Positions 1,213 to 32,193 of a DNA stretch of 64,000 nucleotides are shown here, piece by piece. Each line of letters starts with the position of its first letter. Position 1 is the first letter of the stretch. This DNA is from Alistipes sp. (GTDB lineage Bacteria > Bacteroidota > Bacteroidia > Bacteroidales > Rikenellaceae): assembly GCA_017410165.1 (NCBI GenBank), contig JAFQRH010000007.1, forward strand, positions 4,447-68,446, read 5' to 3'. The translations under genes were made by a program, and so were the position numbers. The notes beneath the pieces were generated by a model, which was given only the letters and a program-made list of their open reading frames with translations, did no database searches and had not been told where the DNA came from.

Positions 1213-3366
1213 CTACTCCTTCTCGAAAAGCAGCACAGCCAAATCGTATTGCTGCAATACGACCTTTGTGCCTCCCCTCTTGACCGATGCGCCACGCAAT
1301 GCCGTATGCTCGACAAAGCGATAGCCGGGCACGCGGATTTTGGCAGTCAGTGTCTCCGGGGTGCGTTGCTGATTAGCGACCACGACAGCCATCTGCTCAC
1401 CCGCAACATAGGCACGCGCATCGACCTTTTCGTTCGAGCATTCAAAACCGAGCGTATCCATATATTTGCCACACAGCAGCGTCGTTTCGTAGTGCTCTTT
1501 GAGTGCATTAACCTCGGCGAGATACGACTGGTATATCGGACAAGTGTCAATCAGGTCGCGGCAACGGAAAATCTCGATATCAATACGCTGACCATCGAGT
1601 ATCGTATTATTTACGTGCCAATATACGTCGTTATCATCACGTTGTCCTCGGTCGGTAAACACCAACTCCGGGAAGGTAAACTTGAAGAAATTCATCCAAC
1701 GTGTCGGTTCATCGTTTGCCGGATAGCCGTGCGTATAGTCGCAATATTGCGCTAATGCATCTACCGTACCCTCGGCACCGAGTGCAAAGTCAGGAGCCAT
1801 CTGTTTGCAGCGTTCGCGCAGCAGTTTCAAACACTCCATACGTTTCTGTATGCCAAAGACATCGGGCACTGTAAACTCGCGACTAGTATCCCAATTTGTG
1901 CTCTCTTTCTCGATATAACCGAGTTGATCGAAAAAGACGCTATGTGCGCCGAGCGCAAATGCGCGATCTTGAAGCGCAAAAAGAACCCGATTCCAATCGG
2001 GATGCATCATTGTTGCGATGGCAAACGTGCGCTGATCGTACTCGCCAAGCCACGTTCCCTGACCCGTAAATTTGTAACGCTCCAATATCTCGGAGCCGGT
2101 ATTATCGTGACGGCACACCTTCGGACCCATACCGCTGCGGTAGTAGCGACTCTCGCGGTCGATAAGTTTGCCGTTGAAATAGAGCAACAAGTGGCTGCCA
2201 TCGGCTTGATACTCGGCGATTGCCCTCTTCAACGCCTCGTCGCCACCCTGCGACTCGTCAGGCGAATAGTCGGGGTTGCCGTGATCCATTCCTTCTGCCC
2301 ACCAACCAAATAGGAACACTGCATTTGAATTAACGCTCTTATCTACCTCTTTCAATCGGCCGTAAAGATCGGGATATTTGAAGAAGTACTCTCCGTATTG
2401 GTGTTTGAATATCACACGCTGCCAGCTTCGTAATTTGCGCACCCACTCCGGCGCCTCGCGGTACTCCCACCACGTATCCACCCAACGTCGATATATGTTG
2501 GCCGCCGTATGCCACGTGCCCGTATATGGAGCAACGACATTCGCCGCACAACTCCACGTCTCGCCACAGAAACAATGCGGATACTTGAAGAAACCGAGTT
2601 CCAACCGATCAAACTCGCCATCCGCACCTTTATACGTGCGCAAACCGTGCCACGTATCCTGAAAAGTATTGTCGTGGCTGCCGAAGTAGAGACCCTGCGC
2701 CTTGCCAAGCAACGCAAAACAGTTCATAAAGACCTTATAACCATACTTTACATCGTGCTGTCGGAATATCTGTTCCGGCTTTTTATATGGAGCCGACGAT
2801 ATGCGATTAATCTTCTGTATCGGTTTATCGTAGAGACGACCACCCGCCTCCGAGGTGTAGAGTTTATGGTCCGCCGGAGCATCAATATTGCGAATGAGCG
2901 GATACTGCATCTCTCGCACAACAGAGTGTGGTTCATTATTCTGAATATCGCACGCAAAGCGCACCTTATCCTCCTCCAACTTAACGCAGAGTGTCACCTG
3001 CATCTCGACCGTATCTCCACGAGCGAGCAATCGTGGATATCGGAGAGTTATGGTGTTACCCTCTTGCACGACCACCACATCTTGCGCATCGCCAAGCACC
3101 TGAATCTCCTTCTCGTCGGGCGTATCGTAGTACAATCGCCACATATAATCGCCACCGGCGGAATACTCGTGTCCCGTCTGCTCGTTACGCAACGAATAGA
3201 GCAGGCCATCCTCGCCAATAGTTATGCTCATTGCCTCATTCGAGAGCGTAAAGCACTTTACGCAGTCATTTGTAGCAGTTGTCGGTTGGTGCTGTCGATG
3301 ACTGTCTCCGCCACACGAAAGCATCAAGGCAGCCGCAATACAGAGAGTGAAAAATTTGTAATTCAT
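1213..3366 (-). CDS. Lipoprotein, putative glycoside hydrolase (DUF6259-like TIM barrel)
   Basis: 717 aa; lipobox LMLSC; beta-sandwich-like N-terminus; FFDQLG and EG motifs as candidate catalytic acids. Confidence 0.65.
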   Translation of the reverse strand: MNYKFFTLCIAAALMLSCGGDSHRQHQPTTATNDCVKCFTLSNEAMSITIGEDGLLYSLRNEQTGHEYSAGGDYMWRLYYDTPDEKEIQVLGDAQDVVVVQEGNTITLRYPRLLARGDTVEMQVTLCVKLEEDKVRFACDIQNNEPHSVVREMQYPLIRNIDAPADHKLYTSEAGGRLYDKPIQKINRISSAPYKKPEQIFRQHDVKYGYKVFMNCFALLGKAQGLYFGSHDNTFQDTWHGLRTYKGADGEFDRLELGFFKYPHCFCGETWSCAANVVAPYTGTWHTAANIYRRWVDTWWEYREAPEWVRKLRSWQRVIFKHQYGEYFFKYPDLYGRLKEVDKSVNSNAVFLFGWWAEGMDHGNPDYSPDESQGGDEALKRAIAEYQADGSHLLLYFNGKLIDRESRYYRSGMGPKVCRHDNTGSEILERYKFTGQGTWLGEYDQRTFAIATMMHPDWNRVLFALQDRAFALGAHSVFFDQLGYIEKESTNWDTSREFTVPDVFGIQKRMECLKLLRERCKQMAPDFALGAEGTVDALAQYCDYTHGYPANDEPTRWMNFFKFTFPELVFTDRGQRDDNDVYWHVNNTILDGQRIDIEIFRCRDLIDTCPIYQSYLAEVNALKEHYETTLLCGKYMDTLGFECSNEKVDARAYVAGEQMAVVVANQQRTPETLTAKIRVPGYRFVEHTALRGASVKRGGTKVVLQQYDLAVLLFEKE

Positions 3367-3490
3367 AATTTTGTATGGTTAGAGTTTTAATTCAAAGTTA
3401 ATAAATTTAGCGATAATACAAAACTAATTGCATAAAAATCAATCAGCAGCCATCATTTCAAGTGTGCACGAGCAGCCCTCGCAAAAAAAA

Positions 3491-4511: not shown

Positions 4512-5462
4512 TTAATGGTGCAACGTACCCGTATTTACAACCGGCTGGGCCGCCTCGTCGGCGCACAATACAACCAGCAGATTGCTGACCATAGCCGCCT
4601 TGCGCTCCTCGTCGAGCTCGACAACACCCTCGGTCGAAAGACGCTCCAAAGCAATCTTAACCATCGAAACAGCACCCTCGACAATCTTCTCGCGAGCCGA
4701 GATGATAGCATCCGCCTGCTGACGGCGCAACATTGCAGCCGCAATCTCCGGAGCGTATGCCAAATAGTTCAAACGCGCCTCCATAACCTCGATGCCCGCC
4801 ATCGCAAGACGCTCGTTGAGCTCGTCGGTCAGGCGATCGTTAATCTCGTCGCCACCCGAACGCAACGTAATCTCGCCATCCGTATTATTCGAGTTCTCGT
4901 CATAGGCGTACATACCCGCAACCTGACGCAGAGCCGAGTCGGACTGCACTGCGACAAAGTTTTCGAGGATGTTCATACGTGTTGTCGAACTTGTCGTAAG
5001 CGTGCCAGCGTCAACCGGTGCATCAATCTCGAACACCGCTTTATACGCGCCATCGGTCTTAATCTTCCAAACAAGCACCAAACCGATAAGAATCGGATTA
5101 CCCGCCTTGTCGTTCACCTTAATCGGATCGACATTAAGGTTACGTGCACGCATCGAGAGTTTCTTGGCGCTCATAAACGGATTAATCCACCAGAAGCCCG
5201 TATCGTAGAACGTACCGCGATAGTTACCGAAGAAGAGCAGCACGCGCGCCTCGTTCGGCTCCAACATCAAATAACCGCACGCCATAATAATCGCCGCGAT
5301 GAGCAACACCACCGAGCCGACGAACAAAAGCGCGCAAAAATCATCGTGCTTGAATAGTTCAACAAACAGCCATACGCTGCCTGCCACGATTGCCAGATTC
5401 AAAACCAAAGCCAGAAAACCATTGAGTTTCCAACCCGAATAGTTGTAATTGTTTGTCTTCAT
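4512..5462 (-). CDS. SPFH/band 7 domain membrane protein
   Basis: Two N-terminal TM segments; [36 protein letters not shown]. Confidence 0.92.
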
Positions 5463-27451: not shown

Positions 27452-28846
27452 TTACTCTTCGCTTGCACCACCTTGACGCTCCTCGCGCGGTGCGTTATTA
27501 TGGCGATTTCTGCCGCCACGATGTGCTCCACCGCGAGAACGGTTGTTACGATTGTGCGAGTGGTTTGCGCGACGTTCACCCTCCGCCTTCGGTGCAGCCG
27601 TCGGCTGTGCATCGTCTGTCGGCTCCGAAGAGGCGTTTTGTGCCGGTTTATGCTCCTGCTTGTCGTGCGCGTCGGTGTGCTCTCTGCGCTCGGCGCGTTG
27701 CTCCTGACGATTGTCGCCACGCGAATTGCGATTGTTGCGCTTCTTGCGCTTCTTTGCCTTATCGAAACGAGTGATGCTATCCTCCTCGGTGCGGAATGTC
27801 GGCTCCTCGGTCTTGGCAGGTGCCGTATCGCCCAAGATGCTCTCGACCTTCTTGCCGTCGCGGTTAAGTGCCAAAATCTCCTTCACGCGCCAAATCGGAA
27901 TCGTCACCACGTTGGCCATTGCCTCCTTGCTCGTGCTGAACGACATCGTGCGGGCGAGGATATCGGTCTTGACCGGATAGTACTCGCCATCCATCGCCTG
28001 CAACGGCTCGCGCAGACGCGGAATCGAGCGACGTGCATCGGCATAGACATCGTATTCGTACATCAGGCAGCACTTCAACTTTGAGCACTGACCCGCCAAC
28101 TTCTGCGGATTGAGCGACAAATCCTGCACGCGCGCTGCGGAGGTTGTGACGCTCGAAAAGCTCGAAATCCACGACGCACAGCACAACTCACGACCACAAG
28201 CACCGATACCGCCGATGCGGCCCGCCTCCTGACGTGCGCCAATCTGCTTCATCTCGATACGGATATGGAACTGCTCGGCAAAGACCTTGATAAGTTCGCG
28301 GAAATCGACACGGCCGTCGGCAATGTAGTAGAATATCGCCTTAATCTTGTCGCCCTGATACTCCACGTCGCCAATCTTCATATCGAGCCCCATATCGGCA
28401 GCAATCTGGCGCGAGCGAATCATCGTCTCGTGCTCCAAGGCAATCGCCTCCTGCCAACGCTCGATATCGTACGGCTTTGCCTTGCGGTAAATCTTCTTGA
28501 ACTCGCCATTGTAGGGGTTGAAACCTATGCGGCGCATCTGCTTTGCGACCATATCGCCCGTCAGCGAGATGATGCCCACATCGTGGCCCGGCGACGCCTC
28601 GACAGCCACAATATCGCCCACTTCGAGTGGCAGATTATTGACATTCTGGTAGAACGAGCGACGCGTATTCTTGAAACGCACCTCAAATATGTCGGTCGGC
28701 ACATTATTCGGATATTCGCGCTGCCAAGGGGTTTCGTGCAGTTTGAAACAGCCATCGGCATAGACGGCAAACGGCTCGCCGAACTCGTTTTCGCCAAAGC
28801 AACATCCGCGACCAATTTCGGGTTTGGTGTATTTAGTGTAGTCCAT
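27452..28846 (-). CDS. PSP1/RicT (YaaT) domain protein with low-complexity C-terminal tail
   Basis: EVRFKNTRR, VEYQGD..KAIFYY.ADGRVDFRELI, RIEMKQIGARQE...GGIG.CGRELCC, KLAGQCSKLKCCL; start likely 28846. Confidence 0.93.
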   Translation of the reverse strand: MDYTKYTKPEIGRGCCFGENEFGEPFAVYADGCFKLHETPWQREYPNNVPTDIFEVRFKNTRRSFYQNVNNLPLEVGDIVAVEASPGHDVGIISLTGDMVAKQMRRIGFNPYNGEFKKIYRKAKPYDIERWQEAIALEHETMIRSRQIAADMGLDMKIGDVEYQGDKIKAIFYYIADGRVDFRELIKVFAEQFHIRIEMKQIGARQEAGRIGGIGACGRELCCASWISSFSSVTTSAARVQDLSLNPQKLAGQCSKLKCCLMYEYDVYADARRSIPRLREPLQAMDGEYYPVKTDILARTMSFSTSKEAMANVVTIPIWRVKEILALNRDGKKVESILGDTAPAKTEEPTFRTEEDSITRFDKAKKRKKRNNRNSRGDNRQEQRAERREHTDAHDKQEHKPAQNASSEPTDDAQPTAAPKAEGERRANHSHNRNNRSRGGAHRGGRNRHNNAPREERQGGASEE

Positions 28847-29095
28847 AATTTCCCAAAAGTTTGTATATTTCGGGTAAAGGTAGGAAAAATTTTTCAATTA
28901 CCGCATGTTTTGCGTAGCAAAAACTGTTTCTTACCACAATTAGCCACGACACAGACGAAACAAGGGTGGGGCATTCGATTATCATCTACTAACTCCACCC
29001 TATCAAGAAAAAAACTCTTCATTTTACCTTCATCAGCAGAAGGTCAGATAATGGTCTGTTCAACAAGGAAATCCATCCGACTTAAATTCAAGGTA

Positions 29096-29210
29096 AAGGC
29101 AAACAACCCGAAAGCCGTTATTGTTGTTACGGTTAGATGGCGAGTTGTTGTTACGGTTAGAAACACGGCAGTTGCGAGCATTATTGTACCAACTGCCCCC
29201 ACGAAGCACC
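29096..29210 (-). repeat. DGR template repeat (TR)
   Basis: 115-nt near copy of 30802-30916; minus strand reads as [38 protein letters not shown] with 12 AAY codons; 12 of 14 differences from VR are at TR adenines. Confidence 0.97.
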
Positions 29211-30217
29211 TACCTAATGACCATTAACTGTAATTTTTCACACACCGAACGTCGTAAGCACTTGGTGTACGCTCTGCGCACAAATGCCAGCAACGGAATT
29301 ATATGCTCTACATATTGTTCATCGTCCCACACTCCGTTTGCAAGTAGGTGTGTATATTTGTATATCTTTCTTTTGAACCTTATTTTGCTTCTTCTGTTAA
29401 GTACGATTTTGTCGCACGATATTCTGTACCCCAAAAATGCCACACCTCTTGTTGCAGTCTCCAATTGCGGACATTTTAAGGTAAGCGACAGTTGTTTAGA
29501 GACAAAATCGGATACTCGATTAACATATTCTTTCAAATCCTCCTTACTATGTCCGAATAACAACATATCATCCATATACCGTACATACACCGGCACACGT
29601 AATGCCTCCTTTATATAGTGATCGAGGAATGAAAGATAGAAATTTGCAAAGTACTGACTCGTAAGATTGCCAATCGGAATACCTCGCTGCGGCGTAACAG
29701 CGTAAGAATCAATAATCTTATCAAACAGATTCAACAGTTGACAATCTTTAAAAACTCGCCGCAACTGCTGTTTCAACACAACGTGCGATACCGAGTCAAA
29801 ATATTTTCTCACATCTAATTTGGCAACATAACGACACTGGCTCATACCCTGTCGAGCACGATCAATCGCAGCATACACACCTTTTCCTTCGCGTGATGCA
29901 TACGTATCGGAAATAAAGTGTTGTTCGAAGCGCGATTTACAGACATTGATTATGGCATGATGCAATACCCGCTCCTCAAACGATGCGGCACATATCACAC
30001 GCTGTTTCGGATCGTATATGTTAAAATAGTGATACCGACCGATTTTGAAAGTACCATTGAGTACTCCATCCCGTAACTCCAAAATATTATTGTAGAGATT
30101 CTTCGTAAATTGTATTACCGGCTCTTTGTGTTGTTTACCTCGTCGCGCATCATAATAGGCCGCCAAAAGATTTTCCAATGCGAGAATCCGAGGCATTAGA
30201 TTAGCAACACGTTTCAT
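29210..30217 (-). CDS. DGR reverse transcriptase
   Basis: 335 aa; YDPK.R.I.AASF.ERV.HHA, GKG, KLDVRKYFDSV, GIPIGNLTSQYFAN, YVRYMDD; no maturase/endonuclease extension; adjoins TR. Confidence 0.96.
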   Translation of the reverse strand: MKRVANLMPRILALENLLAAYYDARRGKQHKEPVIQFTKNLYNNILELRDGVLNGTFKIGRYHYFNIYDPKQRVICAASFEERVLHHAIINVCKSRFEQHFISDTYASREGKGVYAAIDRARQGMSQCRYVAKLDVRKYFDSVSHVVLKQQLRRVFKDCQLLNLFDKIIDSYAVTPQRGIPIGNLTSQYFANFYLSFLDHYIKEALRVPVYVRYMDDMLLFGHSKEDLKEYVNRVSDFVSKQLSLTLKCPQLETATRGVAFLGYRISCDKIVLNRRSKIRFKRKIYKYTHLLANGVWDDEQYVEHIIPLLAFVRRAYTKCLRRSVCEKLQLMVIR

Positions 30218-30666
30218 TGCGACTCCTCAGCAAACAATTCACACAATATGCGACCATACTTTTCAACTCGTTTATCTCCGATTCCGGAAATTTGCGTCAT
30301 AGCCGACGACTCGACTATCGGCAATTGTGCTATTTGAGCAAGTTCCGCATCGGTAAATACGGCATACGCAGGTACAGCATCATCCGCAGCAAGTCGCTTT
30401 CTAATAGCTCTCAATTTGGTAAACTTCTCGAAATCCTCCCGATTGAGCGACTCTTTATAATCGATTTTCTCTTTTCTATCCTGCGGAGAGCCAGAATATG
30501 CCGACGGCAAATATGTCACCAATACCGACCAATGCCCAATATTATCCGACGAGACATAAAACTGTCTGTCAATATCCAACACCTTGTGTCCTCGCAGAAA
30601 CTTGTTCATTATATCCTGTTCCTCTTCGCATCCACGCGACGATATATCAAAAATCTTTACCTGCAT
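30214..30666 (-). CDS. HRDC-domain DGR accessory protein
   Basis: LRAIRKRLAADDAVPAYAVFTDAELAQIA...ISGIGDKRVEKYG; its TGA overlaps the RT ATG (ATGA at 30217-30214). Confidence 0.9.
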   Translation of the reverse strand: MQVKIFDISSRGCEEEQDIMNKFLRGHKVLDIDRQFYVSSDNIGHWSVLVTYLPSAYSGSPQDRKEKIDYKESLNREDFEKFTKLRAIRKRLAADDAVPAYAVFTDAELAQIAQLPIVESSAMTQISGIGDKRVEKYGRILCELFAEESQ

Positions 30667-30703
30667 ATATTTTCTTTGAAATTCACAATAGTATTTGAGC
30701 GAA

Positions 30704-30764
30704 ATCTCGGTTGTCTATTCTCGCAGGACTTTTTCTTTGTCCTGCTCGTCTATCCAACCGAGAT
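30704..30764 (-). other. Two-tier hairpin downstream of the DGR target gene
   Basis: Outer stem ATCTCGGTTG (30704-30713)/CAACCGAGAT (30755-30764); inner stem GCAGGAC (30723-30729)/GTCCTGC (30739-30745). Confidence 0.75.
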
Positions 30765-30795
30765 ATTTTTAAGTCGGATAAATTTCCATTGAACT

Positions 30796-32193
30796 CTAAG
30801 GAAGGCAAACAACCCGAAAGCCGCCAGTGTCGTACCGGTAAGATGGCGACGTGTCGTTACGGTCAGAAACACGGCAGTTGCGAGCACTAGCGTACCAACT
30901 GCCCCCACGAAGCACCCTGTATTGGCCCGAGCTGGGGCCCGTAGGGTTGTTCTGTGACGATGACGAGTAATCGCCATACCAATCGCTACACCACTCCCAT
31001 ACATTGCCGCTCATATCATATAATCCGAGAGCATTAGCACGCTTCTGCTTGACCGGATGAGTTGCATTGCCACTGTTGCCATCGTACCAACCAACAGCAT
31101 CCATGACACCGCCTCCGCTATATTTTGTTCCAACTTTTCTGTTACCTCCGCGTGCGGCATACTCCCACTCCGCTTCGGTCGGAAGACGGTATCGCCGGCC
31201 TGTCATCGCACTCAACTCCTGACAAAATTGATTGGCCTCTTCCCAATTGACATAATACATCGGATATGTGTCCCCAACTCCATACATTGACCAACTCGAA
31301 TTTGCCTTATCTCGTTGCTGATAAATAGTTGCACCCATTATCTTTTGCCACTGCGCCTGCGTAACCTCACATTCAGCCATATAGAAAGAGCCAACTATAA
31401 CAGAGTGCACCGGTGACTCGTCGCTATCGGCTTCGCTGCCCTGCTCTGTGGTCGCGCCCATTTGGAATGTGCCGCCCTCGACATAGATCATCTTCATCCC
31501 CAACCCACAGTTTGCCTGTTCGGTATAATCCTGCGGTGTGCGAGAGTAGGAGGATTGTCCATAATTAGAAGAACCATAGTTCAATTGCGAGCCATAGGAC
31601 GACGAATTGGAAGAGCCATAATTCGGTTGCTGATACGATGGTTGGTCCGTAGTCGTAACATATAGTCGTTCGCCCAGCAGTGCGCTCAAAAGTTCGGAAC
31701 AGGCAGCAGGTATTGCATTTGGATTGCTCAACATATCCACGTCTGCCATCTTTTCACACTTATAGGTGGTCGTACTGAACAATTCGGACGACAAGTTCAC
31801 AACAAATTCGTCGTAAGAGTTAGAGTGCATCTTAACCTTGACAACCGAAAAAATCACATAATCAACCTCCGCTCCTTTTGACACAGACATCTCCCTTATC
31901 TTTTTGGCAATATCAAAAGGCGTTGGTCGCGTTATTCCCTGTTGCGCCAATGCAGCTTTCACCTCCGATATGGAATATGAGTAGTACTCATAGTGTTTAG
32001 AGTTGGTGAATGCCTCTTCTATATTTGCACGAATTGTTGTTTTGGTCGAAGTTGCAAGTTTTACATCGTTATTTCGGTCAAATATCTCCCAAACCGCAAC
32101 TCTCTGTTTGGCAAAGAAAGATTGCGCTGTGACGATGCTCGGAGCAAGCATCGCCACGCACAAAAGCAATATGATAGATAATTTTCTATACAT
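30796..32193 (-). CDS. DGR target protein: signal peptide, N-terminal alpha/beta domain, S/Y/G/N-rich linker, FGE-sulfatase (CLec) domain with C-terminal VR
   Basis: VEGGTFQMG, E.P.HSV, EVTQAQW, PMYYVNWEEA, RLPTEAEWEYAARGG, GLYDMSGNVWEWC.DW, RVLRGGSW...GFRVV. Confidence 0.95.
   Translation of the reverse strand: MYRKLSIILLLCVAMLAPSIVTAQSFFAKQRVAVWEIFDRNNDVKLATSTKTTIRANIEEAFTNSKHYEYYSYSISEVKAALAQQGITRPTPFDIAKKIREMSVSKGAEVDYVIFSVVKVKMHSNSYDEFVVNLSSELFSTTTYKCEKMADVDMLSNPNAIPAACSELLSALLGERLYVTTTDQPSYQQPNYGSSNSSSYGSQLNYGSSNYGQSSYSRTPQDYTEQANCGLGMKMIYVEGGTFQMGATTEQGSEADSDESPVHSVIVGSFYMAECEVTQAQWQKIMGATIYQQRDKANSSWSMYGVGDTYPMYYVNWEEANQFCQELSAMTGRRYRLPTEAEWEYAARGGNRKVGTKYSGGGVMDAVGWYDGNSGNATHPVKQKRANALGLYDMSGNVWEWCSDWYGDYSSSSQNNPTGPSSGQYRVLRGGSWYASARNCRVSDRNDTSPSYRYDTGGFRVVCLP
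30802..30916 (-). repeat. DGR variable repeat (VR)
   Basis: Encodes [38 protein letters not shown]; aligns to TR without gaps at offset 1706. Confidence 0.97.

Follow-up and report, generated by a model that had tools for sequence, protein, structure and literature searches.

Complementary flanks of the variable and template repeats in HRDC-type DGRs: a covarying pairing that may guide the cDNA to its target

The closest described system is the DGR of BPP-1. For it, a covalent RNA-cDNA intermediate was reported and the TR RNA was found to be cleaved at the priming site; cDNA synthesis was independent of VR, and it was proposed that the cDNA-linked RNA primer pairs better with the IMH of VR than with the IMH* of TR (Naorem et al. 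2017, PMC5703328). The BPP-1 sequences were checked: Sp48-56, AGGUGGUCA, is a perfect 9-nt complement of VR TGACCACCT and has mismatches with TR TGCCCATCAC. The BPP-1 RNA (Handa et al. 2018, PMC6182149; Handa et al., preprint 10.1101/2023.10.23.563531) carries in its spacer a protein-binding stem-loop just downstream of TR, later the priming nucleotide Sp A56, then G57; after A56/G57 follows the cPRT Stop, a duplex (average 13 bp) of the spacer with the avd 3' end just upstream of TR. The two Handa et al. studies deal with RNA architecture only, leave target pairing unaddressed and call homing poorly understood. The downstream stem of BPP-1 acts by structure and not by sequence, function being kept when its arms are swapped (Guo 2011).

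DGR homing is described as poorly or incompletely understood in a June 2024 preprint and a 2026 paper; the latter, in which integration is termed incompletely understood, favours annealing to the lagging-strand template. The finding and replacement of VR by the cDNA is the main open step of mutagenic retrohoming, and the sole earlier proposal concerns a single phage, with about 9 nt of pairing. The nearest kin of DGR RTs are the RTs of group II introns. In group II introns, the RNP selects its DNA site through EBS-IBS RNA-DNA pairing that covaries with the target.

The window (the whole 64,000-nt stretch of Alistipes sp. DNA that was analysed) contains on its minus strand a complete DGR in the order target gene with VR, HRDC accessory gene, RT and TR; the coordinates are collected in Table 1. 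The order HRDC-RT-TR is architecture C of Wu et al. The C-terminal domain of the target has an FGE-sulfatase/C-type-lectin fold (Pfam: PF03781, E = 8e-53, residues 234-462). TR and VR (115 nt) differ at 14 positions, 12 of them TR adenines; identity stops at 29096 (TR) and 30802 (VR). The final 21 nt of VR (30822-30802, GGCTTTCGGGTTGTTTGCCTT) contain no A, are identical to TR, and have two occurrences only in the window. The RT has 6448 homologues, named RNA-directed DNA polymerase, the nearest named ones being from Alistipes/Bacteroidales MAGs.

Table 1. Features of the DGR locus, in positions of the window
Feature	Positions	Strand	Description and basis
DGR target gene, 465 aa	30796..32193	-	ORF list; ends in TAG 30798-30796
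Variable repeat (VR)	30802..30916	-	in C-terminal domain of target; direct repeat, 88% identity to TR
VR 3' flank, proposed guide-binding site (IMH equivalent)	30768..30794	-	complementary to TR flank; 5'-GTTCAATGGAAATTTATCCGACTTAAA (30794-30768), follows A30795, 1 nt past TAG stop
Extended hairpin, 10-bp outer + 7-bp inner stem	30704..30764	-	inverted repeat; DNA fold; 3 nt past binding site
HRDC-domain accessory gene, 150 aa	30214..30666	-	PF00570, E = 8e-14 (Pfam)
DGR reverse transcriptase (RT), 335 aa	29210..30217	-	PF00078 (Pfam)
TR-bracketing duplex, upstream arm CAGUUAAUGGUC	29219..29230	-	9 nt before TR, in RT 3' end; inverted repeat
Template repeat (TR)	29096..29210	-	115-nt repeat; begins at RT stop codon
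Proposed spacer-RNA guide segment	29058..29086	-	complementary to 30794-30768; 5'-TTTAAGTCGGATGGATTTCCTTGTTGAAC, 9 nt past TR
TR-bracketing duplex, downstream arm GACCAUUAUCUG	29045..29056	-	begins 2 nt past AAC; inverted repeat
Rest of structured RNA downstream of TR, hairpins	28960..29044	-	fold; conserved landmarks in relatives

Public contigs were aligned to the locus. Many positions of VR within 30824-30900 differ between gut metagenome samples, and low-depth variant contigs give VR diversity inside one sample too; across metagenome contigs whose VRs differ, TR, both flanks and the genes are essentially constant, and the sequence surrounding VR is at least 99% so. Since VR is hypervariable while its surroundings are constant, the DGR of the window is active in nature. 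A DGR-type RT beside TR, adenine-specific TR/VR differences, an accessory gene and ongoing diversification of VR are found together at this locus.

The sequence immediately past VR pairs with the sequence past TR. The coordinates and sequences of these flanks given by the sequence-only reading, with 12 + 6 + 6 Watson-Crick pairs, two G-U pairs and one small bulge, were reproduced; the duplex runs 12 Watson-Crick pairs, 2 G.U, 6 Watson-Crick, a 3x1 internal loop in place of the bulge, and 6 Watson-Crick. Cofolding of the two segments, which had been suggested as a check, gave about -33 to -36 kcal/mol, each flank folded singly giving -4. The local alignment score is 36.5, versus 15.6 +/- 3.1 for 5000 dinucleotide shuffles (maximum 34; z = 6.6; 0/5000 matching the observed score). 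The repeat search listed the core of the duplex among its inverted repeats. When both strands of the window were scanned, the TR flank was the only partner of the VR flank. A chance origin of the complementarity was ruled out by the shuffles together with this whole-window scan. Rfam gave no match at E <= 1 across 28600-31000.

Relatives were collected via alignment of RT homologues; genome contigs supplied 80 loci and metagenome contigs 79. Most belong to MAGs that carry the label Bacteroidota (Bacteroidales, Saprospiraceae, Chitinophagales); for a minority the label is Chlorobiaceae, Cloacimonadota or another group. An HRDC homologue lies directly upstream of RT in 77/80 genome loci and in 58/58 of those with a detectable TR/VR pair; the loci make up a coherent HRDC-RT-TR clade. 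The flank complementarity is present in most of about 100 homologous HRDC-RT-TR cassettes: in most loci of the clade the sequence past TR recurs in reverse complement past VR, over 25-55 nt. The flank sequences are unrelated from locus to locus and complementary inside each. For 66 TR/VR pairs of the genome set the median score was 34 in cognate versus 13 in non-cognate combinations (99th percentile of the latter, 32); in the independent metagenome set the medians were 41 and 17, and 44/52 pairs scored at least 26 (non-cognate 95th percentile, 28.5). Of the TR/VR pairs compared across the clade, 40 show the better spacer pairing at the VR end and 10 at the TR end, and in 16 the two ends are equal. 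In four loci (L185, L207, L211, L219) the complementarity is only about 8 nt long or undetectable.

The pairing covaries. Conservation and compensatory change among homologous HRDC-type DGRs, to which the sequence-only reading had tied its claim, were found in most of these cassettes: RNAalifold, applied to a 27-row alignment, predicted 16 pairs, and compensatory changes on both sides occur in 16/16. Paired cells in the structure count amount to 91.6%, versus 72% in shuffles; the covariation score is 0.568, versus 0.203 in shuffles (0/500 reach 0.568) and 0.075-0.158 in a control with the partners slid. A joint alignment was built from the TR flanks and the reverse-complemented VR flanks, with permuted rows as control; canonical pairs make up 78% in cognate rows versus 59% in permuted ones (maximum 63%; 0/500), and at least two Watson-Crick pair types occur in 32 columns. 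The closest relative of the window (L081, RT 67% identical) has three compensatory differences from it. In the repeats of this relative (3326-3451 and 5008-5134) adenines do not account for most differences between TR and VR, and TR is adenine-poor; this copy of the DGR may be decaying, though the flank complementarity is retained.

The mismatches tell which strands pair. Counted on the sense strands, transition mismatches in the paired block are 55 of G.U type versus 7 of A.C type (one-sided binomial p about 1e-10, the loci not all being independent). G.U pairs and mismatches cluster opposite the conserved GGAU motif, with 37 cases of TR-G:VR-T. Because of the 55:7 asymmetry, the pairing is one of single sense strands and not of a double-stranded DNA site. 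On the TR side the sense strand must be RNA; therefore its partner is the sense strand of the VR flank, either as RNA or as single-stranded DNA.

On the TR side the middle of the guide segment is a small hairpin with a conserved GGAY loop; in the window the segment includes the conserved motif GGAUGGAU (29078-29071), which in relatives is the loop of the hairpin. The paired block is closed by AAC (29060-29058), the sole invariant triplet in an alignment of 38 TR-downstream regions, found in relatives at +25 to +46; by analogy with BPP-1 it is the probable region of the priming site. In relatives an 11-13-nt stretch, always starting 2 nt past AAC, has its complement 3-16 nt upstream of TR, and the 12-bp duplex bracketing TR covaries in most of 44 relatives. 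A duplex of the spacer with the sequence upstream of TR thus adjoins the putative priming site, as in a cis-priming DGR RNA. In six lineages (L197, L210, L219, L221, L222, L223) the VR flank pairs with the two arms only, and the hairpin is skipped; cofolding predicts a three-way junction there, which would make the guide bipartite.

For the whole TR-downstream RNA the consensus fold contains 0 pairs, the MAFFT alignment being poor in the hairpins. Single-sequence folds of this RNA and of the DNA past the binding site were not significant (z = -1.4 and -1.7). In the window no convincing template:primer fold-back was found for AAC; in relatives GCUUA/UAAAC and GCUCA/UGAAC (TR 3' end/spacer) are pairable with one A.C mismatch and covary between sub-groups. 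A conserved (U/G)NGUA(G/A) motif (GUUAGUAG in the window, 28986-28993) lies about 95 nt downstream of TR in relatives; it is present in 85/103 TR flanks versus 17% background, and could be part of an RT-binding element.

On the VR side the position of the pairing is exact. In 34/56 scorable pairs, solid TR/VR identity ends at exactly the VR base that is paired to the C of AAC, and the junction base is usually the G of the TAG stop. Because the junction is exact, a cDNA primed at AAC would continue from the guide without a break, the two making up a single antisense strand across VR and its flank. In the window the binding site begins 7 nt past the A-free 21-mer, at the position expected of an IMH-type signal. 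In loci with 2-3 VRs a complement stands beside every VR, those downstream of TR included; several loci have a VR downstream of TR. The relatives have a hairpin at the same position after the binding site.

In one sub-clade (L105, L109, L114, L123, L127, L141 and others) the loop of the VR-flank hairpin carries GGGA(C/G)G(A/T), a motif present in 47/111 VR flanks versus 3% background, which suggests that the loop is recognised by a protein; the loop of the window's own hairpin is AAAGAAAAA, not this motif. GC skew is consistent with the sense strand of the target being the lagging-strand template and is too weak to use. Joints in metagenome contigs were considered as RNA-cDNA junctions and rejected; they are TR/VR cross-assemblies.

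The locus was compared with BPP-1 feature by feature. Both the BPP-1 IMH and the site in the window lie at the 3' end of VR, are proposed to give homing its direction, and have a hairpin next to them; in both, the spacer RNA directly preceding the priming site (a putative one in the window) complements the VR side and complements the TR side less or not at all. The better pairing of the spacer at VR that marks an IMH is seen here as a 27-nt duplex with the VR flank, and the inverted repeat at 30704-30764 supplies the hairpin after the signal. The stem-loop, A56 and the cPRT Stop of BPP-1 correspond to the GGAY-loop hairpin, AAC (as the presumed priming site) and the covarying 12-bp duplex. The differences are the following. 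The complement is 27-56 nt long in the HRDC clade versus about 9-12 nt in BPP-1 and, unlike that of BPP-1, is often bipartite around a hairpin; in the window it lies in the 3' UTR past the stop codon, whereas the BPP-1 IMH is within the coding VR. IMH* of BPP-1 is a diverged direct copy in TR, whereas the TR flank of the window is the reverse complement of the VR flank, that is, the guide itself. An IMH*-like copy at the TR end was not found in the window, and the relatives have only the short AGCUUA (TR) versus AGUUUA (VR). The accessory protein is HRDC here and Avd in BPP-1; the gene order is HRDC-RT-TR versus avd-TR-brt, and hence the upstream arm lies in the 3' end of RT. Support for the pairing comes here from covariation over about 100 loci and in BPP-1 from one sequence comparison.

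It is considered rather probable that the part of the spacer RNA lying between TR and the priming site remains attached to the cDNA and base-pairs 3' of VR with the sense strand; to much the same degree, the pairing is taken to be a long, often bipartite form of the primer-IMH pairing suggested for BPP-1. The DGR RNA would be arranged as upstream arm, TR, guide (two arms around the GGAY-loop hairpin), AAC, one nucleotide and downstream arm. By analogy with BPP-1, the RT with the HRDC protein in place of Avd would prime the cDNA at the AAC region, and a covalent link would keep the guide at the 5' end of the adenine-mutagenised cDNA. The RNA-cDNA chimera would then anneal as a continuous antisense strand across VR and its 3' flank, probably when the sense strand of VR is exposed and with assistance from the downstream hairpin. 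The pairing would mark VR as the acceptor; TR would be excluded because its flank is the guide sequence itself and not the complement. RNase H and repair would finally fix the cDNA into VR. Priming at AAC, a lasting RNA-cDNA link and DNA as the partner are the presumptive elements of this scheme. The likeness to group II introns is functional only: there is here no ribozyme, reverse splicing or target-primed reverse transcription, and the proposed pairing would deliver a ready-made cDNA.

Of the three options offered by the sequence-only reading, docking of the RNA of the TR 3' flank on the sense DNA strand beside VR as a homing guide gives the best comparative fit: a complement stands at every VR and abuts it exactly, the arrangement is colinear with a primer-linked cDNA, and the layout of IMH and hairpin is that of BPP-1. 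The option of a priming structure held in part. By analogy with BPP-1, the TR flank is the spacer leading up to the probable priming site; its pairing with the VR flank, however, competes with the fold-back and does not form it, and BPP-1 makes cDNA without VR (Naorem et al. 2017, PMC5703328).

The best-surviving alternative, though an unlikely one, is pairing of RNA with RNA: the VR flank, carried by the target mRNA or by a polycistronic target-HRDC-RT-TR transcript, would pair with the TR flank for processing or regulation. Variants of it are an RNase III cut near AAC that makes the 3'-OH of the primer, or sequestration of the primer that regulates cDNA synthesis. All components lie on one strand in 159/159 loci; neither an opposite-strand VR nor a remote VR of the kind that would exclude pairing in cis was found among them. 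Since all VRs are on the strand of TR, the two flanks may pair inside a single transcript, or the TR flank may pair in trans with the mRNA of the target. The G.U bias fits equally well, and a duplex of about 30 bp is a plausible substrate of RNase III. The cleavage of the BPP-1 TR RNA at its priming site (Naorem et al. 2017, PMC5703328) points the same way. Such pairing, however, does not demand exact abutment to the end of VR identity, and the independence of BPP-1 cDNA synthesis from VR speaks against it. In the variants with a three-way junction the hairpin stays folded, as would be expected of an RNP-bound guide more than of an RNase III substrate. A stem closing a 1.7-kb loop, or serving as an RNase III substrate, had been put forward as a further option of the sequence-only reading; it is conceivable but not general, since loci with 2-3 VRs, each with its complement, or with VR downstream of TR share no HRDC-RT-TR loop.

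Still less probable is a footprint, in which the VR flank was written by past homing events that incorporated the primer RNA or a copy of it, the complementarity being a by-product. An incorporated RNA-cDNA chimera would, we infer, leave just this trace: VR and, next to it, the spacer in reverse complement as far as the priming site. Copying, however, predicts perfect complements, whereas the mismatches recur at a fixed place, as G.U opposite GGAU (the 37 TR-G:VR-T cases); moreover, the hairpin is omitted entirely in some lineages, and the flanks are constant among samples with differing VRs. A DNA-level inverted repeat, either as the ends of a mobile HRDC-RT-TR cassette or as a recombinase or protein binding site, is very improbable: two inverted copies do flank HRDC-RT-TR in the window, but the 55:7 excess of G.U over A.C is unexpected for a double-stranded site, complementarity and not sequence is conserved between loci, multi-VR loci hold several copies per one TR copy, and the cassette is without a transposase or recombinase gene.

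The view that the feature was undescribed needs correction in one part: pairing of the primer with the IMH of VR had already been proposed (Naorem et al. 2017, PMC5703328), and what seems new is the long, covarying flank form in HRDC-type DGRs. No description of long, covarying 3'-UTR complementarity in HRDC-type DGRs was found in the literature. The guiding of the cDNA may be stated more generally, as a proposition that could equally well hold or fail: HRDC-type DGRs, a large lineage known chiefly from Bacteroidota MAGs, would be RNA-guided elements in which a bipartite guide of about 30 nt, with a protein-bound hairpin between its arms, is linked to the cDNA and picks the DNA strand 3' of VR, the arms being programmable and the BPP-1 pairing a minimal form of the same. 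About 100 independent cassettes amount to a natural experiment that gives strong comparative support to RNA-guided choice of the target and shows which nucleotides to mutate. If the guiding is real, VR would be told from TR without IMH*, the presence of the same 3' tag on each extra target would be explained, and rewriting the two short arms could direct DGRs to new targets for use in directed evolution. Annotation pipelines would gain a rule for spotting remote DGR targets.

Extension of the pairing to all DGRs was rejected: 59 distant viral cassettes gave no overall excess (cognate median 16 versus 14), and at the best-pairing register the spacer of distant viral DGRs favours the VR end in 24 loci but the TR end in 29 others. 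Because a general excess is absent from distant viral DGRs, the long guide may be specific to the HRDC-RT-TR clade. In BPP-1 itself (L162, AY029185) Sp 2-41 inversely complements the region 13-47 nt downstream of VR, including the 3' arm of the stem-loop (31/40 matches; 21/5000 shuffles score as well; p about 0.004); this extended complement is probably not essential, since function is kept when the stem arms are swapped. In five viral contigs with distant, Avd-type TR-RT cassettes (L001-L003, L011, L021) a spacer segment of 8-10 nt, about 35-55 nt past TR, is perfectly complementary to the end or flank of VR and not to TR; a GAUGGAU motif resembling that of the HRDC clade is part of this segment in L011 and L021.
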